Part shown: in pieces, positions 3,998 through 63,847 of the stretch
How positions within the stretch are numbered: position 1 is the first letter of the stretch
Layout of the letters: every line of letters begins with the position of its first letter
Assembly (NCBI GenBank): GCA_050261575.1
Contig: JBLNDL010000014.1
Coordinates: 10,054-74,053, forward strand
Source: Sphingomonadaceae bacterium
GTDB lineage: Bacteria > Chloroflexota > UBA6077
Length of the DNA: 64,000 nt
Reading direction: 5' to 3'
The notes under the pieces: model-generated
Seen by the model: only the letters and a program-made list of their open reading frames with translations
What the model was told of the DNA's origin: nothing
The model's database searches: none
Position numbers and translations under genes: made by a program

Positions 3998-4050
3998 GGC
4001 GCGAGCGTGGCCGCGAGGCGAGCGAGCACAGCCTCGCGGCCACGCGCGCC
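3998..4050. repeat. intergenic hairpin repeat, family H, copy 2 (extended ~20-bp stem)
   Basis: GGCGCGAGCGTGGCCGCGAGG-CGAGCGAGCACAG-CCTCGCGGCCACGCGCGCC. Confidence 0.55.
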
Positions 4051-6403: not shown

Positions 6404-6440
6404 GGGCACGCGGGGCGAGCGAAAGCAGCCTCGCGTGCCC
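6404..6440. repeat. intergenic hairpin repeat, family H, copy 3
   Basis: GGGCACGCGGGG-CGAGCGAAAGCAG-CCTCGCGTGCCC. Confidence 0.5.
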
Positions 6441-6645
6441 GCTCGTGTCACCTGCCCAAGGCCACCGTGATCCCGGCACTGCGGGCCGAGTGGTTCTCCG
6501 TCGAGCAGCATCTCCGGATAGAGCACTCGTTGTCCGCAAGGAGGCCGACGCGGAATGGAGGCATCTGCTCGGGGCAGGTGAGCGGCTGCACGTGGGGCTC
6601 GATTGAGGGGCCACGCAGCACCGAGAATCGTTTGAGGTGATGACC

Positions 6646-9624: not shown

Positions 9625-10595
9625 GGCTGGGCACCGGCGGACAACTGGGGTACTACGGGCTGATCGCCCTGGCGGCGGCGATGTGGGGCACCCTCGGGGT
9701 GTTGACCAAGCATCTCTACGAATACGGCGTCAGCCCGTGGTCGCTCACCTTCCTGCGGACACTTCTGGGGTTCCTGGCCTTCGGCGGGGTGATCCTCTTC
9801 TTGGATCGATCCAGGTTCCGCGTTCGGCGGCGGGATCTGCCCTACCTCGCCCTCTTCGGGCTGATCAGTACCTCGATCTTCTACGCCCTCTACCTCTACA
9901 CGATCAGCCTTACCAGCGTGGCGGTGGCCGCCGTGCTGCTCTACACCGCGCCAGTGTTCGCTGCCATCATGGCCAGGTTCGCATTCGGCGAAGCGATCAC
10001 CCCGCCCAAGGTGGTTGCCTTGCTGCTCACCTTTGCTGGATGCGTGCTGGTGGCTGGGCTCGAATCGGGGGCGCCGGTGGTGACGCCGCTTGGGATCGGC
10101 ACGGGGCTAGGCTCCGCCCTGACCTACGCCAGTTTTGGGATCATGGGCAAGAAGGCTGGCCAGCGCAACTGCCACTGGACAATCAACTTCTATTCCATGG
10201 GATTTGCCACCCTCTTCCTGTTGCCGGTGCTGGCGCTGCCGGAGGTGTCCCTCTGGCCCTACCAGACCGAGGTCTGGCTGCTGCTGGCCGTGATGACGGC
10301 GGGGCCCACCCTGGCCTCCAGGGCGCTCTACGTGGGGGCGGTGAAGCACGTGGAGGCGAGCCGGGCGGCCATCGTCGCCACGGTGGAGCCGGTCGCCGCG
10401 GCGGCCTTTGCCTTCCTGCTGCTGGGGGAGCTACTCTCCTCTAGCCAGTTGATGGGAGGCTTCCTCGTGCTGGCGGGCTCTGTGCTCGCCCAGCAGCCGG
10501 GCCGGCCGGACGCGGAGCCACGCGACCAGGGAGGCGCGCCCGCGAAGCGGGATGTTCTGGCGTCTACCTCAGCCTCACTTCAGCAGGACAGGTAG
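9621..10595 (+). CDS. EamA/DMT-family transporter
   Basis: 10 predicted TM helices with duplicated EamA-like halves; TTG start overlapping upstream stop. Confidence 0.65.
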   Translation: MRLGTGGQLGYYGLIALAAAMWGTLGVLTKHLYEYGVSPWSLTFLRTLLGFLAFGGVILFLDRSRFRVRRRDLPYLALFGLISTSIFYALYLYTISLTSVAVAAVLLYTAPVFAAIMARFAFGEAITPPKVVALLLTFAGCVLVAGLESGAPVVTPLGIGTGLGSALTYASFGIMGKKAGQRNCHWTINFYSMGFATLFLLPVLALPEVSLWPYQTEVWLLLAVMTAGPTLASRALYVGAVKHVEASRAAIVATVEPVAAAAFAFLLLGELLSSSQLMGGFLVLAGSVLAQQPGRPDAEPRDQGGAPAKRDVLASTSASLQQDR

Positions 10596-13974: not shown

Positions 13975-15159
13975 ATGGCAGACGATTCCAAGACACCCTT
14001 GGTGGACGAACTGGAAAAGGGAAGCTGGCCCAGTTTCGCCAAAGAAATGAAGCGGCGGGCCGAGAAGAACCTGGCCGCGAAGGACTTGGTAGGCCAGCTT
14101 GAACTCTCCTACCAGGAGAAACGGGTCCACTGGAAGCACGGCGGGGTCGTGGGCGTCAGGGGCTACGGGGGTGGGGTGATCGGTCGCTACTCCGACGTTC
14201 CCGAGAAGTTCCCCAACGCCGCCGAGTTCCACACGATGCGGGTGAACCAGCCCAGTGGCTGGTTCTACACCACCGAAAGCCTCCGCAAGCTGTGCGACGT
14301 TTGGGAGAAGTACGGGACGGGCCTCACCAACATGCACGGCTCCACAGGCGACATCATCCTCCTGGGCACGCAGACGGCCAACTTGCAGGAAGCCTTCAAC
14401 GCCCTGAGCGACGCCGGGTTCGACCTGGGTGGCTCCGGCTCCGACCTACGAACCCCGAGCGCCTGCGTGGGCCCCGCTCGATGCGAGTACGCCTGCATCG
14501 ACAGCCTGGGGATCTGCCACGACATCACTACGACCTACCAGAACGAGATTCACCGGCCGATGTGGCCCTACAAGTTCAAGATCAAGGTGGCGGGTTGCGC
14601 CAACGACTGCGTCGCATCCGTCGCCAGGTCCGATTTCGCCATCATCGGCACCTGGAAGGGCCCTTTGCGGATAGACCAGGCCGCGGTGAAGGAGTACATC
14701 GCCGCGGGCTTCGACGTGAAGGGCGAGGTGGTCGATATGTGCCCCACGAGGGCGCTGTGGCTGAACCAGGATGACAGCCTGGCTCTTGTCGCCGAGGAGT
14801 GCAAGCGCTGCATGCACTGTCTCAACAAGATGCCGAAGGCGATCAAGCCCGGCAGCGAGAAGGGCGCGACGATTATGGTCGGCGGGAAGGCCCCCATCGT
14901 CCGCGGCGCCTACCTCTCGTGGGTGGTCGTGCCATTCATGAAAATGGAGCCTCCCTACACGGAGTTGAAGGAGCTGCTGGAGAAGATCTGGGAGTGGTGG
15001 GACGAGCACGGGAAGTCCAGGGAGCGGATCGGGGAGTTGATCGACCGACTCGGGATGGGCCGCTTCCTCCGCGATCTGGGACTGGAGCCCTCGCCTGCGA
15101 TGGTGTTCCAGCCGAGGTCCAACCCCTACTACTTCTGGCAGCCCGAGGAGGTGAAGTGA
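13975..15159 (+). CDS. dsrA: dissimilatory sulfite reductase alpha subunit
   Basis: ~395 aa; siroheme/FeS Cys clusters ([16 protein letters not shown]), ferredoxin-like insert (CKRCMHCLN); RBS GGAGG. Confidence 0.85.
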
Positions 15160-16487: not shown

Positions 16488-16533
16488 CGCAACGCGAGCG
16501 AGTGCAGCGTTGCGCCTCTTGCAGAAGGAGAGG
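16488..16533. repeat. compound hairpin repeat: family H copy 4 plus CCTCTT..AGAGG hairpin
   Basis: CGCAACG-CGAGCGAGTGCAG-CGTTGCG, then CCTCTTGCAGAAGGAGAGG; preceded by GCCCTCACCCC. Confidence 0.55.
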
Positions 16534-17312: not shown

Positions 17313-17358
17313 CACAACGCGAGCGAGCGCAGCGTTGCGCCTCTCCCAGGGGGAGAGG
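17313..17358. repeat. compound hairpin repeat: family H copy 5 plus CCTCTCCC..GGGAGAGG hairpin
   Basis: CACAACG-CGAGCGAGCGCAG-CGTTGCG, then CCTCTCCCAGGGGGAGAGG; ~70 nt upstream of dsrM. Confidence 0.55.
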
Positions 17359-26756: not shown

Positions 26757-26986
26757 GCAGGGCTGAGGACTGAGTGGTCCACCCCGCAGGCTCGGGGGAG
26801 CCGTCCAGTCACCCTGAGCGGGGCGAAGGGTCCCCAGTGTCGTGTGCACGCCATCCCGAGATAGCTGCCGAGGCCGAAGTACGCGTTCCCCACCGGAACG
26901 GTCGGCGTGAACAAAGGACGACTGCCCGGCAGGCGGGGCACACCACTCAGCACCCAGAACGCGAGACGACAAAGGAGTCCAGAGGC

Positions 26987-30269: not shown

Positions 30270-30296
30270 CGCAACGCGGGCGAGCGCAGCGTTGCG
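30270..30296. repeat. intergenic hairpin repeat, family H, copy 6
   Basis: CGCAACG-CGGGCGAGCGCAG-CGTTGCG between convergent folK and the aldolase gene. Confidence 0.55.
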
Positions 30297-40064: not shown

Positions 40065-42185
40065 TTAGCCCACGGGCTGGACTTCCTCACGAGGCCGAAC
40101 CTCTACCGGCTGCGCGCGCCCTCCCCAGTCCGTTCTGCGTCGCCTCAGCACGACCTCGCCGCCGTCGGACGCGCCGTCCATCTGGAAGCGGGCGACGGCC
40201 GACTGCAACCGCTCTGCCATTTGGGCGAGATGCTGGGCCTGGGCCACCATCTCCTGCACCTGGGCGCTCATCTCCTCGGTGGAGGCGCTCACCTCCTGGG
40301 CCGAGGCGCTGGTCTCCTCGCTGACCGCCGCGACCTTCTCGATCGAGGTGGCGACTTGCTGGCTGGACTGGGCCATACTGCGCGCGGCGGCCCGCGATTC
40401 CTCGGCGACCGTCTCCACCGAGTCCATCGCGGCAACCACCTCCTTGGAGGCGGACTCCATCTGCTGGACCGTTCCGGCGATCTGGGTCACCTGACCTGCA
40501 GCGACCTCGACGGCGGACAGGATGTTCTTGAGTGCCTCTCCGGCCTCCTCGGCGAAACGGGACCCAAGCTCTACTTCCTTGGTGCCACGGTTCATCGCGT
40601 TGACGGCCTCCTGGGTCCCCTTCTGCACCTGCGTGATGAGGTCTGCGATCTCCCTGGTGGACTTGGCCGACCGCTCGGCCAGTTTGCGCACCTCGTCGGC
40701 CACCACCGCGAAGCCCCGCCCGTGCTCGCCTGCCCGCGCCGCCTCAATCGCCGCGTTCAGCGCCAGCAAATTGGTCTGCTCGGCTATGTCGCTGATGGTC
40801 TCCACGATGGTGCCGATCTGTTCGGAGTACGCCTCCAACTCCTGGATCTTGTCGGCGGCTCTGGTGGTGGTGGCTCTGATTGCCGCCATGCCTTTCGCCG
40901 ACTTGCGCACGGTCTCCGCTCCGGAGACCGCGGCTTCCTGGGCTGCGCGGGCGGAGGCGGACACCTCCTTCGAGGCCGATGCCACCCTGGAGATGGAGCT
41001 GTTCAATTGGCTAACCGAGGAGGATGCCCTCTCGACGGCCCGAGACTGCTCGTCGGTTCCTCTGGCAATCTGCTCGATGGAGCGGGAGAGTAGCTCCACC
41101 GAGGCGGAGGTCTCCTGGACAGCGACCGCTTGCTCCTGGTTGCCTGTGGCGACTTGCTGGATGGTGGTTGCGATCTGTTGGGTGGCGGAGCCGGCCTGGT
41201 CCGAGGCCGTCAGGAGCCGCTGGCTGGCTCCAGCCAGATCCGAGGCGGAGACGGAGACACTGCCGACCATCTCTCGCAGGTTGGCGACCATTCGGTTGAA
41301 AGCGTTCCCGAGAGCGTCCCTGTCGGAGCGGGGCACGACTTCGCGGGAGAGGTCGCCGCGAGCCAACCGCTCGGCGACTGAGACCATCTCCTTCAGATAG
41401 TCGATCAGCCGGCAGAACGCTGCAACCACCTGACCCACTTCGTCGCGGCTCCCCGCCTGGAGTTCGAGCTTCTGATCCACGTCTCCCAGGGCCAATCCTT
41501 CCGCCGCGACCTCGATGCGGCGCAACCCGCCCGTGATCGATCTAGAGAGGAGGAAGGCGATAGTCACGCTGATGACCAGGGCCAGAGTGATGAGAAGGAG
41601 CATCTGGGTGCGCGCGGCGTCGTACTGGCTGCGGGAGTCGGTGTAGGCGGCCTCGGCTTGGCGCTGCATCTGTGCCACCAGGAGGTCCATGGCCTCGATG
41701 ACTGCGGCATCGCTGGTCTGTATCTGGATGATCAGTCCCCGCATCTCCGGCAGCATCTCGACCCCGCTGGCCTGCTTGCCAGAGGCGGCGGTGCGGAGAA
41801 GGATATCGTGGAGGAACAGTCCCTTCTCTCTGGCATCGCGCACCCTGGCCAGGGCCTCCTTGCCCTCTGTCGTGCTCAGGAGGGGTTCCAGTTCCTTCAA
41901 CCTGTCTTGGAGCGCTGTGTCGGCTTTCGCCCAGTCCTGGGAGGCCTTGTCGATCGCCTCTCTGTCCGCAGCGAGGGCCGCGTCGCGAAGGGCGACACCC
42001 ATCTCGGACAGGTTCATCTTGGCATCGTTGACCTTGGAGATGCCCTGGCCTTGATTGAGGTACATCTCGTCGACCATTCGATTGACGGCGGTCATCTTGT
42101 CGATGCCGACCCAGCCCACCGCCATCATCAGAGCCAAGACCGTCGCGAACCCGGCGAGCAGCCTAAGCCGCATGGTGACTCGCAT
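40065..42185 (-). CDS. methyl-accepting chemotaxis protein (4HB-type sensor, HAMP, MCP signalling domain)
   Basis: N-terminal TM-sensor-TM, HAMP, highly conserved MCP signalling core (...[16 protein letters not shown]...); RBS AAAGGAG. Confidence 0.85.
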
Positions 42186-42411
42186 TCCCGTTGCTCCTTT
42201 CCGCTGGCCGACGACGACCAACAGCAGTACTGGACAGGTATACGTGCAATGGTCACTAGGACCCCAAGAAGTAGTATCGGCAACTCTCCGCAACCTCTGT
42301 AGAGGTAGCGGGGTTGGTTGGGAGTGGGGTTTCACCAACCTCCTTGACAGGGGGACTGTGCCGCCACAGAATGTGCGGGGGTGCACAAACTCACTCGGGG
42401 TGGTGGGAGCG

Positions 42412-43623
42412 ATGGCCAGGGGACTCACGGGGTTGCGGGTTCTCGATCTCTCACAGGCGCTGTCTGGCCCCTATGCGGGGATGATCCTGGGCGACTTGGG
42501 GGCAGAGGTCATCAAGATCGAGCCCCCGGGCGGTGAGATCTTTCGTAATCTGGGGCCCTACTATCGGGGTGGGTGGAGCAGCTACTTCGTGAGCATTCAC
42601 CGGAACAAGAAGGGGGTAGTGCTGGATCTCAAGAAGGAGGGAGGTCGCCAAGCCTTCCTGGATCTGGCCAAGGTCTCCGACGTGGTGCTGAACAATTTCA
42701 GGCCGGGGGTTCTGGAGCGGTTGGGGATCCCCTACTCGCTGATGAAGGACGTCAACCCCCGGGTGATCGTGGCCTCCATCACGGGCTACGGCTCCACCGG
42801 CAGTTGCCGCCACAAGACCGCCTTCGATCTCGCCGTGCAGGCGGCTAGTGGGGTGCTCAGCGTGACCGGTACCGAGGATGGGGAGCTGGTGAAGTGCGGC
42901 GTGCCGGTGGCGGACCTGGCGGCTGGCATGTTCGCGGTGATCGGGATCCTCACGGCGCTCCGGGAGCGGGAGGTAAGCGGCCAGGGGCAACACGTGGACG
43001 TTTCCATGTTCGACACGCAGCTATCGATGCTGAGCTACCAGATCTCCTGGTACACCTCCAGCGGGGACGTTCCGAAACCGATAGGGACGAGCCACCTCGG
43101 GTTGGAGCCATACGGGGCGTACAAGACTAAGGACGGCTACCTGGTATGGACTATCGGCACCGAGGACTTCTGGCGCCAGCTTTGCCGGGTGCTGGGGGTG
43201 CCCGATCTCGCCTTCGATCCCCGTTTCGACACCGTCAAGAACCGGCACGAGAACCGAGCCGAGTTGAAGCGGATCCTGGAGGAGATTCTATCCACCCGGA
43301 CGACGTCCGAGTGGATGGTGGTGATGGAGAAGGCGGGCATTCCGGCGGCGCCCGTGAACAACCTGGCCCAAGCGCTAGAGGAGCCCTGCGTTCGGGAGCG
43401 GCACATGCTGGTCGAGGTGGACCAGCCCGGATATGGGAAGGCTTACATTGCCGGGAATCCGGTGAAGCTCTCTCGCACCGGCGGCGAGGAGTTCACTCCC
43501 ACGCCTGCCTTGGGTGAGCACACAGTGGAGGTTCTGCGGGAAGTGGCGGGCTACTCCGCGGCCAAGATCGAGCAACTGCTGAGCGAGAAGTCCGCCGTGC
43601 AGGGTCAACTCCTCACGGTCTGA
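42412..43623 (+). CDS. family III CoA-transferase (CaiB/BaiF)
   Basis: [31 protein letters not shown]-terminus and conserved Asp region; the 5' 350 nt of track ORF 42055.. is non-coding leader. Confidence 0.8.
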
Positions 43624-45347: not shown

Positions 45348-46114
45348 GCACGACTGCAACTGCCCAGCGGGTGTTCAGCCGGCCGCGCTGCCTCTCAGCC
45401 ACCGTTACCCACTACTGCCGCGGTTGCGGCCACGGCGTGGTCCACAGGCTGGTGGCCGAGGCGATAGACGAGTTGGGGCTCCAGGAGCGTGCGCTGGGGG
45501 TCTGGCCGGTGGGGTGCAGCGTCTTCGGGTACAACTACTTCGAGTTCGACGGCTGCGAGGCCGCGCACGGGCGCGCCCCGGCGGTGGCCACCGGAATCAA
45601 GCGGGTGCATCCCGAGCTGTTCGTGTTCGCCTACCAGGGAGACGGCGACCTGGGGGCGATCGGCACAGCCGAGATCGTGCACGCGGCCGCGAGGGGGGAG
45701 AACATCACCATCGTCTTCGTGAACAACGCCGTCTACGGCATGACGGGCGGGCAGATGGCGCCGACGACCCTGCCGGGGCAACGGACCACCTCGACCCCTA
45801 CGGGGCGGGAGACGGCGAAGGCAGGGTATCCCATCCGGATCAGCGAGATGCTGGCGACCCTGGAGGGACCGCGCTACATCACACGCGTGGCTGTGCACAG
45901 TCCGGGGGCGATTCGAAGGGCTGGGGCGGCGATCCGCAGAGCCTTCAAGTGCCAGGAGGCGGGACTGGGCTTCTCTCTGGTGGAGGTGCTGTCTCCCTGC
46001 CCAACGAACTGGGGGGTGAGCCCGAAGGAGTCCCTGAAGTGGTTGGAGGAGCGGATGATGCCCTACTACCCGGTGGGTGACATCAAAGTGGTTCCGGCCG
46101 TGGACGCGTTGTGA
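45344..46114 (+). CDS. 2-oxoacid:ferredoxin oxidoreductase beta (TPP-binding) subunit
   Basis: CRGCGHG, GDGDLGAIG TPP motif; ATGA overlap with alpha subunit. Confidence 0.8.
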   Translation: MSTTATAQRVFSRPRCLSATVTHYCRGCGHGVVHRLVAEAIDELGLQERALGVWPVGCSVFGYNYFEFDGCEAAHGRAPAVATGIKRVHPELFVFAYQGDGDLGAIGTAEIVHAAARGENITIVFVNNAVYGMTGGQMAPTTLPGQRTTSTPTGRETAKAGYPIRISEMLATLEGPRYITRVAVHSPGAIRRAGAAIRRAFKCQEAGLGFSLVEVLSPCPTNWGVSPKESLKWLEERMMPYYPVGDIKVVPAVDAL

Positions 46115-46128
46115 GGGGAGGTCGTCAG

Positions 46129-46695
46129 ATGGAGCAGGACCACGAGATCATCATAGCCGGCTTCGGCGGGCAGGGTGTCCTGTTTGCCGGGATGCTGCTA
46201 GCTCATGCCGCCCTTCACTGCGACCGCAACGTGGCGTGGATCCCATCGTACGGGCCGGAGATGCGGGGGGGAACAGCCAGGTGCACCGTGATCCTCTCGC
46301 ACGAGGAGGTGGGGTCTCCTATCGTCAGCTATCCATCGTCTGCGATAGTGATGAACGAACCCTCTCTGGCGAAGTTTGGTCCGAGAGTGCGTTCGGGTGG
46401 GGTACTGGTGATCAACCGTTCCCTGGCAAAGGCCCCATTCTGCAGGGACGACATCCGCGTGCTGGAGGTCGCGGCGAACGAGATCGCCGCGCGGCTCGGG
46501 AGTGACCGGGCGGCGAACATGGTGGCATTGGGGGCCTTGCTTCGCGCCACAGGCGCCCTACCTATAGATGTGGTGGAGGCGGCGATGCCCGATGCCCTGG
46601 GGCCGGGCAAAGAGCGATTCGTCGAGTCGAACGTCGAGGCGCTGCGGACGGGTGCCGCGCTAGCAGGCGAGCTGCTGAGGGTGCCGGTCGGGTAG
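46129..46695 (+). CDS. 2-oxoacid:ferredoxin oxidoreductase gamma subunit
   Basis: IIIAGFGGQGVLFAG... gamma-subunit signature. Confidence 0.75.
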   Translation: MEQDHEIIIAGFGGQGVLFAGMLLAHAALHCDRNVAWIPSYGPEMRGGTARCTVILSHEEVGSPIVSYPSSAIVMNEPSLAKFGPRVRSGGVLVINRSLAKAPFCRDDIRVLEVAANEIAARLGSDRAANMVALGALLRATGALPIDVVEAAMPDALGPGKERFVESNVEALRTGAALAGELLRVPVG

Positions 46696-46730
46696 CGGGG
46701 CCAATCGACTGGGTGCGGAGTCGCGATGAG

Positions 46731-46766
46731 AGGGCGGCCATCCCGGAACGCCGGGATGGCCGCCCT
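46731..46766 (+). terminator. GC-rich hairpin downstream of the OFOR operon
   Basis: AGGGCGGCCATCCCGG-AACG-CCGGGATGGCCGCCCT, 16-bp perfect stem. Confidence 0.5.
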
Positions 46767-46771
46767 GTGGG

Positions 46772-46844
46772 TCTAAGCAGGTATCTCTAGTTCATGTCAA
46801 CCGTTCCGGCGGGATCTGTACTCAGTCCGGAGATACCTGCTCAG
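46772..46844 (+). mobile_element. MITE-like ~72-bp element with ~18-bp terminal inverted repeats, copy 1
   Basis: CTAAGCAGGTATCTCTAG...CCGGAGATACCTGCTCAG; right TIR supplies the TGA stop of the minus-strand MCP gene. Confidence 0.55.
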
Positions 46845-49309
46845 ACGGCGGGGACCGCACTGGCCCTGGCGCCCGCGAGTGGCTCGGGGCGAACCGGCGC
46901 GGTCCAGTCGTCTTGGCGCTGCCTGAACACCACGCCCTTCTCCTGGCTCATCCGGAAGTGGGCGATGGCGCCCTGAAGCTGTGCGGCCATGGCGGTGAGA
47001 TGCTGGGCCTGGGCCACCATCTCCTGCACCTGGGCGCTCATCTCCTCGGCGGCTGCGCTGACCTCCTCTGCGGAGGCGCTGGTTTCCTCGCTCACTGCCG
47101 CCACCCTCTCGACGGTCGACGTAACCTGCTGGCTGGAGACGACCATCTCCTGGGTAGCGGTGGCCGACGTGTCCGCCGCTGTGGAGACGCCGTTCATTAC
47201 CTGGACGACGTGCCGCGAGGCATCCTCCATCTGGCCGACGGCCGAGGCAATCTGGCTGACCTGGGTGGCGGCGGACTCCACGAGGGAGAGGATGTCCTTC
47301 AGAGCAGCGCCTGCCTCTTCGGCGAGGGCGGTGCCGGCTTCTACCTCCTTCATCCCCTCCTGGATCGCCATGACCGCCTCCTGGGTCTCCTTCTGAACCT
47401 GGCCGATCAGTTCCGCTATCTCTCTGGTTGAGCGGCTGGTGCGCTCCGCGAGCTTGCGCACTTCCTCCGCCACCACCGCGAAGCCTCGTCCGTGCTCTCC
47501 GGCGCGGGCTGCCTCGATGGCGGCATTGAGCGCGAGCAGGTTCGTCTGCTCGGCTATGTCGTCGATCGTCTCGACTATGGAGTTGATCTGCTCGGAGTAC
47601 TTGTCCAGGTCCTGGACTTCTTGGGTCGAGGCGATAGTGCGTTGCTTGATGACGGCTATCCCGTCTACCGTCTTCTCCACTGCCTTTGCCCCAGAGAGGG
47701 CGGCGCGTTGTGCTTGCTGGGTTGCCTCCGCCACCTCTCGCGAGGCCGCAGCGACCCTGGAGATGGAGTCGTTCAGTTGTGCCACTGAACCGGACGCCTT
47801 GCCGACGGCGTCCACCTGCCCCCGCGATGTGTCGGCGATCAGGTCTATTGCCCGGGACAACTGGTCGAGCGAGGATGCCGCCTCCTGGACGGAGCCGGAT
47901 TGCTCTTGGTTGCCCCGCGCCACTTCCTGAATGGTCTGGGCGATCTGGTGGGTGGCGGCGCCAGCCTGGGAAGAAGCGGAGGAGAGCGCCTCCCCTGCCT
48001 CGGCGACCCCGTTGGCCACGTCGGCCACCTGGCCTATGGCCTCGCGCAGGCCAGAGACCATCTGGGCGAAGGCGTTGCCCAGCAGGTCTCGCTCCGAGCA
48101 GGGATGTACCTCCACGGTCAAGTCGCCGCCTGCTATGGCCTCGGCCTGTCGGGATGCCCGCTTCAGGTACTCCCGGATGCCGCGGAAGGCGAGCCCTATC
48201 TGTCCGATCTCGTCCTGTCTGACGGTCTTCTTCCACTTCTTCTCGTCGGCGTGATAGGTGACGTCACCCTCGGCGGTGTGACGTGCCACGTCGGTGAGGG
48301 CTTCGAGGGGTTCGGCCACGCGCCGGGCGACGAACCAAGCCATGATCAGGACCAGCACCAGCAGCACGGCGGCCAGCGGCGCCATGCCGATCAACAGCCC
48401 ACGTGCGGGCGCCATGAACTCCGCCTCCAAGGCGGCGACTCCCACTGCCATCCCCTGGCCCTTGTAATCCCCGTCGGGCTTCACCGGGGCGAAGCCGATC
48501 AGCCTGCCAGATCCGTCCAACTGGTAGCTGCCTGCTCCGGTCTCGCCTGAGACCATCCGCTTGCCGATGGCCGCCAACTCAGGGACTTGATGCTCAGTCA
48601 GGCCGGTGGAGAGGGCGTGGGTGGAGTCTGTGCTCGCCACGATTGTGCCGGCGCGATCCACTACGAAGGCGTAGCTGTGTTCTCCTGCATTGATCTGCTG
48701 CAACTTGGCGGAGATCAGACCGTAGTCCAGGGCGCCGCCCAGAATGGCCTGCACCCGTCCCGCCTCGTCCTTCATCGGCACGGCAACGACGCTGATGAGC
48801 TGCTTGGTGACGGGCGAGGGCTTGGGCTCGCCGACGAATAGCTGACCCTCGATGGCGGGCTTGAAGAAGTCCCAGTTGGAGAAGTCCTGTCCGAGGAGTT
48901 TGCCGTCCAAGGCATCGAGGAACACCTTGCCGTCGATGCCGACCAGGAAGACGTTCTCGTACTCGCCGATCTGCAGAAGGTGCTCACCCTTCAGTTGGTC
49001 GATCGCGTTCTTGCGGGTGGCATCCTCCATGGAGCCCTTGGCCTGTTCGGCAACCGCCTTGTTCAGTAGGGCCCCGGTGCCAAGGACCATCATGGAGCGA
49101 ACCCTCTGGTTGAGGTGCTCAGAGATGAGAGCGGCTTGCTGCTCGGCCGTCCCGCTGAGCCTTTCGTACACCTGACTTCGGAGTGCGCTCTCGAAGCTTC
49201 TGTAGGACACGACCGTCGCCAGCGCCAGCGGCACGAGCGCTGTCACGAGACAGAGGGGGACCAGACTATTGCGCAAGCTTCGGGAGAAGATGCCGCGGAT
49301 CCTTCCCAT
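46841..49309 (-). CDS. methyl-accepting chemotaxis protein (Cache-type periplasmic sensor, HAMP, MCP signalling domain)
   Basis: TM, large periplasmic Cache-like domain, TM, HAMP, MCP core nearly identical to the other MCP. Confidence 0.85.
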
Positions 49310-49466
49310 CGTAGTGATCGAACCTCCTCACCTGATTGCCCCGCTCCGGGAATGGCCAATTTCGGCCCCGGCCTCGAGCAGTGATTGGTGGCCTGACACG
49401 AAGCTCCGGTTAGCCGCGTACGGTAGCACGGCCAATCCAGACAGCGGGGTTTCGCGCCGCGGTCAC

Positions 49467-49540
49467 GCTGAGCAGGTATCTCTGGTGCGTGTCAACTTCT
49501 CTGGCGGGGAACGTGTACTCGATCTGGAGATACCTGTTTA
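49467..49540 (+). mobile_element. MITE-like element, copy 2
   Basis: CTGAGCAGGTATCTCTGG...CTGGAGATACCTGTTTAG; ~160 nt upstream of the MCP start. Confidence 0.5.
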
Positions 49541-49635
49541 GTAAGATCGGCAGAACCGGAGATCTCTTTAGGGTTCGACGTGGGTAGGGCTACGATGGAG
49601 GTGGGGCTACGATCCACGGCCGGTGCAACCCGTAA

Positions 49636-49704
49636 CACCTATCTCTAGTTCATGTCACCTTCTCCGGCGGGAGACGCGTACTCCATCTGGAGATACCTGC
49701 TCAG
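49636..49704 (+). mobile_element. MITE-like element, copy 3 (left end degenerate)
   Basis: ...CACCTATCTCTAGTTCATGTCACC...CTGGAGATACCTGCTCAG; right TIR overlaps the TGA stop of ccmD. Confidence 0.5.
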
Positions 49705-49850
49705 TTGCCCTCTCGCTCGGCGAGGACTGCCTTCAGCGTCTCGATCTCCTCGCTCAGGGTCTTCTGTCGCGCGGCGATGCTGTAACTGTAGAGGAGCATC
49801 GCGAGCCAGATGATGGCGTAGGCCGCGAATAGAAACGTCAGATTGCCCAT
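49701..49850 (-). CDS. ccmD: heme exporter protein D (CcmD-like small membrane protein)
   Basis: 49 aa single-TM MGNLTFLFAAYAIIWLAMLLY..., directly downstream of ccmC; RBS GGAGG. Confidence 0.5.
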   Translation of the reverse strand: MGNLTFLFAAYAIIWLAMLLYSYSIAARQKTLSEEIETLKAVLAEREGN

Positions 49851-49933
49851 GTGGTTCCTCCGTGTACCCGATTCTGAGTCCCGAGTGTTGAGTGTTGGAT
49901 GCTGCGAGATGCCCTGTAAGGCCTGACTTCTCA

Positions 49934-58108: not shown

Positions 58109-58251
58109 GACGACGCCTGCCTAGCGGTCCGCCGGCAGCGGACGGCAGCCAGCCGCCAACTGGGCGTTCTGTAGATGATACCGCGCGGGCCGAAGCTGGG
58201 GGCGGGAGAAATATTAGACTAGGATAAGAATTGCGATGGGCCATCGGCCAA

Positions 58252-58322
58252 ACCTGGTGTCTCCAGTTCTTGTCAACTTCCCCGGCGGGAAACGTGTACT
58301 CTATGCAGAGATACCCGCTTAG
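58252..58322 (+). mobile_element. MITE-like element, copy 4
   Basis: ACCTGGTGTCTCCAGTTCTTGTCAACTTCCCCGGCGGGAAACGTGTACTC...GAGATACCCGCTTAG; right TIR supplies the TAA stop of the histidine kinase gene. Confidence 0.5.
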
Positions 58323-63550: not shown

Positions 63551-63773
63551 CGCTCATCCTCTCGACTGCGAAATCCTCGAGCAAGATCATCTTGTTGGGT
63601 TGGTGGCGACCCGTCCGCTGGAGAGGTCGAGATCGGAATCGGCGATCTCTGAGGTGGGCTACCCTCTCCGGCGACACGAGCCGCCGCCACGCAAGAACTC
63701 GGCTACCGACAGCGCTTAACGCAGCCCGTGCAGGGGCGGACCTATGTGGCCGCCCCTACGGGTACTGTCAGGA

Positions 63774-63843
63774 TCTAAGCAGGTCTCTCCAGATAGTACA
63801 CGCTTCTCGACAGAGAAGTAGACGTGAACTAGAAGCCTGCTCA
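63774..63843 (-). mobile_element. MITE-like element, copy 5 (inverted orientation)
   Basis: CTAAGCAGGTCTCTCCAG...CTAGAAGCCTGCTCAG; reverse complement aligns with copies 1-4; abuts the stop of the following gene. Confidence 0.5.
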
Positions 63844-63847
63844 GGCT

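Follow-up and report, generated by a model that had tools for sequence, protein, structure and literature searches.

The short repeats that bracket a chemoreceptor (MCP) gene in the window analyzed here, a stretch of 64,000 nucleotides, are very probably copies of a non-autonomous DNA transposon (MITE) that are old and in decay, and the gene itself is very probably native to its position and was not moved by them. The MITE family is previously undescribed and is seen in one uncultured Chloroflexota-like MAG only, with five copies. In the 64-kb window these five copies are accompanied by two relics.

The chemoreceptor gene and its neighbourhood in relatives

The MCP gene (46841-49309, minus strand) encodes a protein of 822 aa with dCache_1, HAMP and MCPsignal domains (Pfam) in a genome with a GC content of 66%. 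On one side it converges with the gene for an OFOR gamma subunit (46111-46695, plus strand; PF01558, NF006323). The two are separated by a GC-rich hairpin (GGGCGGCCATCCCGG / CCGGGATGGCCGCCC; 46732-46765, strand unassigned) that probably terminates transcription from both directions. The opposite flank is occupied by ccmD (49701-49850, minus strand; 49 aa), with which the ccmABCD cluster ends and which was called with TIGR04391 at 38.5 bits against a cut-off of 24. No record identical in sequence was found for the MCP, OFOR alpha or OFOR gamma proteins. As stated in the initial annotation, the MCP gene is flanked by three element copies, one on its stop codon and two upstream; the latter (copies 2 and 3) lie in the spacer between ccmD and MCP, which measures 391 bp.

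This bracketing by repeats of the same family had been taken to suggest that the receptor gene was mobilised as cargo of a composite transposon, i.e. that copy 1 on one side and copies 2 and 3 on the other formed the two termini of a compound element that brought the gene to its place between OFOR and ccmD. The synteny comparison bearing on this claim was made with L020 (22 kb) and with L026-L029, which belong to other species and are not near-isogenic (protein identity 58-82%; the CcmC of L026-L029 is 82% identical to that of the window). In L026-L029, ccmD is followed by an MCP remnant, then by an MCP with the C-terminal end ...PAV*, the terminator hairpin and the convergent OFOR gamma, beta and alpha genes; in L026 the hairpin is kept at 10403-10450. 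In L020, ccmD is directly followed by an orthologous dCache MCP, which is 58% identical and likewise 822 aa in length; the C-terminal PAV* is common to the MCPs of the window, L020 and L026. No MITE copy was detected at E<=1 in the 22 kb of L020 or in L026-L029, and when hairpin elements related to the MITE were sought in the contigs of the relatives, unrelated palindromes only were found.

Thus, the adjacency of ccmD and MCP is kept in L020 and L026-L029, and that of MCP, terminator and OFOR gamma in L026, in each case with zero elements. The 7.7 kb of other genes that separate MCP from OFOR in L020 do indicate that this junction is evolutionarily unstable, as would suit a mobilised gene. However, the L020 ortholog agrees with the MCP of the window in length and C-terminus, and a conserved promoter block between copies 3 and 2 (see below) marks the DNA there as native. 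Every copy is explained by a separate insertion where it stands, further copies adjoin unrelated genes, and the elements, 66-68 bp in length, encode nothing, none of the flanking ones being an IS that could supply a transposase. Transport of the receptor gene as composite-transposon cargo is therefore highly improbable.

A dispersed family of short inverted-repeat elements

The recognition of the repeats as MITE-like in the initial annotation was justified: they are small, non-coding and dispersed, and they carry inverted repeats. Copy 1 (46773-46844, plus strand) separates the MCP stop from the terminator hairpin. Its body of 66 nt (46776-46841) is flanked by the dinucleotides TA and CA, and the MCP stop TGA (46841-46843, minus strand) consists of the flanking dinucleotide and the terminal base of the element. 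Copy 2 (49468-49541, plus strand), with a body of 68 nt (49471-49538) flanked by TG and TA, lies upstream of the MCP gene where no ORF ends. The start of copy 3 (49631-49704, plus strand) is 163 bp from that of copy 2. Copies 1-3 share one orientation. The left arm of copy 3 is degenerate and the copy overlaps the ccmD stop TGA (49701-49703, minus strand), again composed of the flanking dinucleotide and the terminal base.

Two further copies, which had been overlooked, show that the family is dispersed and that these copies also adjoin gene ends. Copy 4 (58249-58322, plus strand) is found between the stop of a histidine-kinase gene and the cupredoxin-ccm operon, and the histidine-kinase stop TAA (58319-58321, minus strand) is made up of the TA flank and the terminal base of the copy. 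Copy 5 (63773-63846, minus strand; profile match at E = 7e-12) is oriented opposite to the others and begins 2 nt past the stop (TAG) of a gene of the TctC family and precedes a GC-rich hairpin. More tightly delimited, copies 1-5 span 46774-46843, 49469-49540, 49632-49703, 58250-58321 and 63776-63843, respectively. Four of the five copies are accordingly located 0-2 nt from a stop codon. The nhmmer profile was made from four copies, which it recovers at E = 1e-23 to 8e-25. It also detects a degenerate intergenic relic (6509-6574, minus strand; E = 2.5e-5) and a fragmentary one upstream of coaBC that consists of the interior and one arm (~26843-26920, strand unassigned; E = 6.6e-4). In contigs of the same strain from Logan, which were reached via CcmC and two edge genes, copies 2-5 are essentially the same, with equal coordinates and near-identical nhmmer scores, and about 14 kb of further Logan contig DNA of this strain contained no additional copy.

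The body of the element measures 64-68 bp, with a non-coding interior of about 40 nt and terminal inverted repeats of about 15 nt (consensus A(G/A)CAGGTATCTCYAG ... CYGGAGATACCTGCT). The arm motif GGAGATACCTG, with one mismatch allowed, occurs six times against 0.95 expected, and none of 100 shuffles reached six. By inspection, the arms are complementary at 13 of 15 positions in copy 1, 12 of 15 in copy 2, 11 of 15 in copy 3 and 9 of 15 in copy 4. Pairwise identity among the copies, flanks included, ranges from 64 to 74%.

The elements are imperfect palindromes about 70 nt long whose beginning coincides with, or falls within, the stop of the preceding gene, and three follow one another in the same orientation. 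In this they are also reminiscent of site-specific recombination sites of the attC type, which would mark gene cassettes by their palindromic ends. Against this stand the lack of an integrase among the annotated genes of the window, which constitute a conserved ccm operon and its neighbours, and the position of copy 2, which follows no ORF. Relatives devoid of the sites have an identical gene order. Furthermore, the arm ends (CTNAGCAGG), judged by eye, fit neither the core nor the inverse-core consensus of attC (RYYYAAC and GTTRRRY). An integron-like origin is thus extremely improbable.

Several known families of short repeats resemble the MITE in part. Correia elements (CREE) of Neisseria are short inverted-repeat elements that duplicate TA, adjoin genes and are co-transcribed with them, and they can alter promoter context, mRNA processing or mRNA stability. 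They are about 100-155 bp long, occur in hundreds of near-identical copies and bring their own promoter-like and IHF-binding sequences; the element of the window, in contrast, shows no such sequences and no sequence similarity to them. REP and BIME sequences are intergenic palindromes at gene 3' ends that can stabilise mRNA as hairpins. REPs are only 20-40 nt in length, have a GTAG or CGTC tag, are mobilised by RAYTs and do not duplicate their target, whereas the MITE of the window is about 70 nt long, with distinct terminal repeats, TA duplication and no GTAG or CGTC tag. In Coxiella burnetii, QMITE1 and QMITE2 extend by 1-50 bp into functional ORFs at their 3' ends, and they can provide or displace stop codons and add stable stems to the mRNA (PMC5896051). 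QMITE1 and QMITE2 are larger than the present element (150-400 bp), their direct repeats are variable and not TA, and no preference for CTAG is reported for them.

Outside the MAG, a scan of 185,579 species genomes with the exact pattern returned 17 single hits in unrelated taxa, none of them with the arm motif, and the corresponding metagenome scan gave two chance hits. Of 31 hits in a viral collection, none was confirmed by the profile. BLAST against plasmids gave no match to the MITE, and a literature search on the arm sequence and on MITEs of Chloroflexi returned nothing relevant.

Empty sites and target preference

L026/L027 show empty sites for copies 1, 2 and 4, and L020 shows them for copies 1, 3 and 4. 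The cleanest is that of copy 2. In L026/L027 it has the form GCCGATGTTAC-TA-GCGTAACC (in L026, TTAC-TA-GCGTAACC), compared with GCCGATCTTAC-TA-[68 nt]-CA-GCGTGACC in the window (TTAC-TA-[element]-CA-GCGTGACC). A single TA in L026, where the empty site reads TTACTAGCGT, thus corresponds to TA...CA around the element in the window, i.e. to a duplication of TA at CTAG. Duplications of 3 bp (TNA), 4 bp (CTAG) or 6 bp (NCTAGN) were also considered for this site and were rejected, as each requires more mutations than the 2-bp duplication of TA. At the site of copy 1, ...GTATAAGCCCCCCAGGGCGGCC in L026 is matched by ...GTC-TG-[66 nt]-TA-GACCCACAGGGCGGCC in the window; in L026 the conserved terminator hairpin directly follows the MCP stop with no element in between. 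Copy 4 is absent from L027, L028 and L020, with the intergenic flank AATTCTTATCC... conserved. The blocks GCGGTCTG and AATTCTTATCC are contiguous in L027, and in the window the same blocks are split by the element and 17 extra nt. With respect to copy 3, the ccmD of the window is 4 codons shorter than that of L026 and one codon longer than that of L020.

Of the ten dinucleotides that flank the five copies, four are TA, five are one step from TA, and one is GT (two steps, in register). The outer flanking base is C in all five copies on one side and G in all five on the other, in a register that counts the flank of copy 3 as GT; a shift by 1 nt gives TA there, with G outside in four of five. As CTAG is palindromic, the flanks alone are also compatible with a longer inverted repeat, and the two readings are separated solely by the empty site of copy 2 and, less cleanly, by that of copy 1. 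Judged from these alignments, the copies appear to be insertions at TA, preferentially inside CTAG, with duplication of TA, cleanly resolved at copy 2 only.

The most likely mover of the MITE would be a TA-duplicating DDE transposase of the IS630/Tc1-mariner type acting in trans. Some IS5-family subgroups are reported to duplicate 2-4 bp at CTAG-like sites as well, so this assignment is not unique. The window, the about 14 kb of extra DNA of the same strain, the relatives and the public scans yielded neither an autonomous element nor a transposase with ends like those of the MITE. Both IS630-family and Tc1/mariner elements take TA as their target and duplicate it, with CTAG favoured by IS630 (PMC2170065, citing Tenzen & Ohtsubo 1991). 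For IS630 and ISY100, TA insertion and duplication are documented (PMC2170065); here they are seen inside CTAG at one cleanly resolved site. The MITEs of this group, i.e. the Stowaway type of eukaryotes and those of IS630/ISY100 in bacteria, are likewise small, non-coding and multi-copy, with terminal inverted repeats of about 15 nt, and are likewise present or absent between related genomes. The family described here differs from them in that neither a transposase partner nor a full-length IS sharing its ends is seen and that its copies are old (~70% identical), with duplications that are partly eroded. With 64-68 bp it stands at the short end of the MITE size range.

The target preference offers a simple explanation for the overlap of the MITE with stop codons. 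CTAG is rare in the window, where 41 occurrences were counted, whereas base composition predicts 202 (a five-fold depletion) and a Markov model 100. Thirty-eight of these sites lie outside the elements, and 13 of the 38 are intergenic or at stop codons. Outside ORF interiors, CTAG persists mainly at C/TAG stops and in promoter or terminator DNA, and tolerated insertions therefore gather at gene boundaries. On insertion into a C/TAG stop, the first base of the element, an A, rebuilds the stop (TA+A, later TGA) and so leaves the protein unchanged, as is evident from comparison with the relatives for the MCP and for the histidine kinase, whose C-terminus is ...LPAV* in both the window and L027. 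A rare target combined with a stop-recreating first base may thus account for the location of these copies.

Structure and promoter context of the copies

The stop-codon association could also be read in another way, namely that the repeats are selected cis-acting structures, similar to REPs or UTR hairpins, that end transcription or stabilise mRNA ends, and not neutral remains of a transposon. In line with this, the folding of copies 1 and 2 is far more stable than that of shuffled sequences (z = -5 to -6), the copy 2 stem-loop folds independently within the predicted MCP leader, at the predicted 5' end of the mRNA, and the five copies do not vary in the right arm or at several interior positions, although their overall identity is only about 70%. 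However, no copies are present at the homologous sites of the relatives, and copies 3 and 4, whose stem is lost, fold no better than shuffled sequence (plus strand, z = -1.1 and -0.1; minus strand, z = -1.2 and -0.8). Compensatory base pairs are absent on both strands (RNAalifold), and copy 5 is inverted relative to its gene. Copies 1 and 5 precede pre-existing terminator hairpins, so that a terminator is unneeded there, and the proximity to stop codons is explained by the CTAG target. With Rfam 15 no match at the gathering score was obtained over the whole window; at E<=10 the region 46600-49900 yielded only an irrelevant miRNA model inside coding sequence. No tRNA or tmRNA genes were found. 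Overall, selection for a structured element is quite unlikely as the origin of the repeats, and we regard them as transposon remains.

Upstream of the MCP gene, a sigma-28 (FliA)-like promoter candidate, TAAA-N15-GCCGATCT, was recognised from its sequence (49544-49570, minus strand). The block is about 77% identical in L026/L027 (AAAA-N15-GCCGATGT) and has the counterpart GCCGATAA in L020; a TAAA-N15-GCCGAT block is thus conserved in three lineages. In all three the distance from promoter to ATG is 153-164 nt once copy 2 is removed. A similar sigma-28-like motif is found upstream of a second MCP and of the L026 ortholog of that gene, and a scan of the MCP upstream region for a sigma-70-like promoter gave no match. 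The direct repeat GGGCTACGAT noted in the initial annotation was confirmed (49587-49596 and 49604-49613, plus strand). It has a 17-bp period and is located 17-43 nt upstream of the -35 element. It occurs exactly twice in the window and nowhere else there, falls under the TRF threshold and was not found in L026 or L020.

The proposal that the regulatory region had been remodelled by the elements holds, as copies 2 and 3 both prove to be insertions when compared with the relatives. An effect on the promoter is possible as well, since copy 2 lies exactly 5 nt downstream of the conserved -10 box of the putative promoter. Given this spacing, the initial ~70 nt of the receptor transcript would stem from copy 2, which probably makes up the 5' end of this mRNA as a 5'-terminal stem-loop. 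Copy 1 would add a hairpin-forming segment to the 3' UTR before the conserved terminator, and copy 3 resides on the ccmD stop codon. A more far-reaching proposal is that the MITE possesses a built-in safe landing, with C/TAG as target and the first base A restoring the stop, and that some copies have been co-opted, copy 2 being kept as a protective 5' stem-loop of the sigma-28-driven mRNA and copy 3 insulating the promoter from ccm read-through. We consider this unlikely; if true, it would constitute documented MITE rewiring of chemoreceptor expression in Chloroflexota.

Overall, the results presented here remove a false lead, as the chemoreceptor gene is very probably an ancestral neighbour of the ccm operon and not cargo of a mobile element. 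They add a new MITE family from a lineage that has received little study, and three of its insertions can be resolved by comparison with relatives. The only testable biological consequence is whether copy 2 alters how stable or how abundant the receptor mRNA is. In annotating this genome, the MITE should be kept in mind wherever gene ends or 3' UTR 'motifs' are interpreted.

Copies of the element and its RNA-folding potential

The chemoreceptor (MCP) gene at 46841-49309 on the minus strand encodes a protein of 822 aa with dCache_1, HAMP and MCPsignal domains. It is convergent with the OFOR alpha/beta/gamma cluster (ending at 46695) on its 3' side, and a spacer of 391 bp separates its 5' side from ccmD, the last gene of ccmABCD, which encodes a 49-aa CcmD (TIGR04391). 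Repeat finding and alignment bore out the initial annotation in placing three copies of a short inverted-repeat, MITE-like element beside this gene. Copy 1 (46773-46844) contains the MCP stop codon, and both copy 2 (49468-49541) and copy 3 (49631-49704, containing the ccmD stop codon) lie in the spacer; the three have a common orientation and a length of roughly 72-74 nt. Copy 4 (58249-58322) overlaps the stop codon of a gene for a histidine kinase. With a profile of four copies, we detected an inverted copy 5 (63773-63846, E = 7e-12), which starts 2 nt past the TAG that ends a TctC-family gene, as well as two degenerate relics at 6509-6574 and ~26843-26920. The arm motif occurs six times against 0.95 expected, and none of the shuffles reached six; the repeats are not due to chance. 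The five copies are old, as any two of them are only 64-74% identical, short flanks counted in. Since the family is dispersed beyond the MCP locus, the bracketing is not special to this gene. All five intact copies fall inside 17 kb (46.7-63.9 kb) of the ~78 kb of same-strain DNA examined (p about 0.01 by our own rough scan-statistic estimate), a pattern compatible with local hopping or with a regional surplus of tolerated CTAG sites.

Exact-pattern scans of collections of species genomes, metagenomes and viruses, and a BLAST search of plasmids, gave chance matches only; neither the arm motif nor the profile upheld any of them. A reading of the element as a structured RNA was also considered. 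Folding is far superior to that of shuffled sequences for copies 1 and 2 but no better for copy 3 (z = -1.1 on the plus and -1.2 on the minus strand) and copy 4 (z = -0.1 and -0.8, respectively), and consensus folding of both strands contained no compensatory pairs; these results speak against this reading. No Rfam family matches the element and no tRNA-like gene is present. The independent decay of the arms is the behaviour of a dying inverted repeat, unlike that of a selected RNA stem.

Another repeat family in the window, unrelated to the first, consists of 27-nt hairpins (2312-2338, 4012-4038, 6409-6435, 16488-16514, 17313-17339 and 30270-30296), all apparently intergenic, with a conserved loop GAGCGAGYGCA, stems that vary complementarily (CGCGAGGC/GCCTCGCG versus CGCAACGC/GCGTTGCG) and longer flanking similarity in repeat families D6 and D13.

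Gene order in relatives

The MCP protein has a 100% identical counterpart encoded on a 112-kb contig of an NCBI MAG. The best other full-length MCP homolog (58% identity, likewise 822 aa) is encoded on L020, a JGI contig of a more distant relative. There the order of response regulator, histidine kinase, cupredoxin, ccmE-F-H, ccmA-B-C-D and MCP is that of the window, and 7.7 kb of other genes lie between the MCP gene and the convergent OFOR cluster. These extra genes (12879-20152 of L020) encode GntR, TctC, an FAD oxidoreductase, a protein without Pfam match, DUF362 and a Fer4 protein; the stretch between MCP and OFOR gamma is missing from the window and from L026, and its junction coincides with where copy 1 lies in the window. 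The contigs of a closer lineage (L026-L029, CcmC 82% identical, labelled Chloroflexota) have an unchanged gene order through ccmD. In this lineage, ccmD is followed by a 331-aa dCache MCP remnant, in which residues 1-60 are fused to the signalling domain, then by a 4HB-type MCP, which over its cytoplasmic half shares 65% identity with the window's dCache MCP, and, after a 62-bp spacer, by the convergent OFOR gamma-beta-alpha cluster. From the comparison of this region (7193-10394 of L026) with window positions 46841-49309 and 40065-42428, MCP paralogs have evidently recombined around the OFOR cluster. In the window, the 4HB MCP is found on the opposite side of that cluster.

A profile search of the whole contigs detected no element copy at E<=1 in L020 or L026-L029; in same-strain Logan contigs, copies 2-5 were recovered at identical coordinates with near-identical scores. 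The initial annotation had proposed that composite-transposon-like bracketing mobilised the MCP gene and had named synteny as the check. This comparison revealed conserved synteny in the element-free relatives, which refutes the composite-transposon interpretation.

L026 also carries, between pta and ackA (14266-14354), a 26-nt inverted repeat (TGTAGCCGCAGGCTTCAGCCTGCGCG / CGCGCACCCTGAAGGGTGCGGCTACA); this palindrome is REP-like, carries a GTAG tag and is not related to the MITE. The source MAG is labelled 'Sphingomonadaceae bacterium' at NCBI (P0001, P0093), and all close relatives of its CcmC (82%) and MCP (55-58%) are labelled Chloroflexota or Thermomicrobiales; the former label is probably due to mis-binning or mislabelling.

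Empty sites, target and stop codons

For copy 2, L026 and L027 contain the empty site GCCGATGTTAC-TA-GCGTAACC, and the window reads GCCGATCTTAC-TA-[68 nt]-CA-GCGTGACC; the single TA of the relatives' CTAG thus corresponds to an element flanked by TA and CA. At the site of copy 1, a hairpin AGGGCGGCCGTCC...GGACGGCCGCCCT directly follows the MCP stop codon in L026, and in the window GTC-TG-[66 nt]-TA-GACCCAC precedes the same hairpin. In L027 the histidine-kinase gene ends ...CCCGCGGTCTGA, immediately followed by AATTCTTATCC; in the window the element (copy 4) and 17 nt separate these two blocks. The additional ~17 nt (58228-58248, GGCCGATGGCCCATCGC on the minus strand) form a small palindrome that is absent from the otherwise well-conserved kinase-cupredoxin spacer of L027 and L028. 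Across the five copies, the flanking dinucleotide is TA in 4 of 10 cases and one substitution from TA in 5 of 10; the distal flank of copy 3 is GT, which differs from TA at both positions if no 1-nt shift is permitted. In the register counting that flank as GT, the outer base is C in 5/5 on one side and G in 5/5 on the other.

A 2-bp TA duplication at CTAG is documented for IS630, ISY100 and Tc1/mariner targets (PMC2170065, citing Tenzen & Ohtsubo 1991 for CTAG). The copy 2 junction is less well explained by duplications of 3, 4 or 6 bp. We therefore interpret the element as a MITE that was moved by a DDE transposase of a TA-duplicating kind. Going by target data alone, some IS5-family subgroups are also compatible. 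No mobilising transposase was found in the window, in ~14 kb of additional same-strain DNA or in the relatives.

The window has 41 CTAG sites, where base composition predicts 202 and a Markov model 100. Three sites lie inside elements; by a crude gene map, the other 38 comprise 25 in ORFs, where insertion would be disruptive, 10 intergenic sites and 3 TAG stop codons preceded by C. Several intergenic sites (25541, 34181, 37662) have the common context GCTAGCGGG. On the same crude map, TAG is the commonest stop codon (25/55, with 24 TGA and 6 TAA) despite the five-fold CTAG depletion. Because the first base of the element body is A, an element that inserts at the TA of TAG would recreate a stop (TA+A). 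The present stops of MCP (TGA), ccmD (TGA) and the kinase (TAA) each consist of the flanking dinucleotide plus the first element base. The C-terminus ...PAV* of MCP is common to the window, L020 and L026, and ...LPAV* of the kinase to the window and L027; the predicted MCP and kinase proteins are unaltered by the insertions. ccmD has four codons fewer than its counterpart in L026 and one more than that in L020, so copy 3 may have shortened it a little. Overlap of MITEs with ORF 3' ends by a few bases is already known in bacteria, e.g. in Coxiella (PMC5896051).

The MCP upstream region

On the strand of the gene, the spacer consists of the ccmD stop, copy 3, ~60 nt including a repeat of 17-bp period, TAAA-N15-GCCGATCT, TAC, copy 2, ~160 nt and the ATG. 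The direct repeat reported by the initial annotation was confirmed: the window has exactly two occurrences of GGGCTACGAT, spaced 17 bp apart, and the repeat is lineage-specific. The sequence TAAA-N15-GCCGAT agrees with the consensus for FliA/sigma-28 promoters, TAAA-N15-GCCGATAA. This block is ~77% identical to its counterpart in L026/L027 (AAAA-N15-GCCGATGT), the rest of the spacer not being alignable, and L020 has GCCGATAA at the equivalent position. If copy 2 is left out of the count, 164, 159 and 153 nt separate the -10 box from the ATG in the three lineages. No sigma-70-like promoter was found in this region. A similar sigma-28-like motif lies upstream both of the window's second MCP gene, whose true start is near 42185, and of the L026 counterpart of that gene. 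As called mechanically, the ORF of this second MCP (40065-42428, minus strand) is ~81 codons too long; its alignment to L026 begins at residue 82 (MRVTMRL...), and the motif, TACA-N16-GCCGATAC at 42301-42274, lies within the false N-terminal extension.

Copy 2 replaced DNA starting 5 nt downstream of the -10 box and left the promoter hexamers intact. From this position, it probably forms the first ~70 nt of the MCP mRNA; in the predicted leader its stem-loop is independent and is present in both the minimum-energy and centroid structures. The earlier, weaker suggestion of a remodelled upstream region is literally correct.

Overall, the element represents a new but ordinary MITE family of an uncultured, probably Chloroflexota genome. 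Its interest is modest: the empty sites are clean, the stop codon restores itself, and one copy is inserted right after a conserved sigma-28-like promoter.
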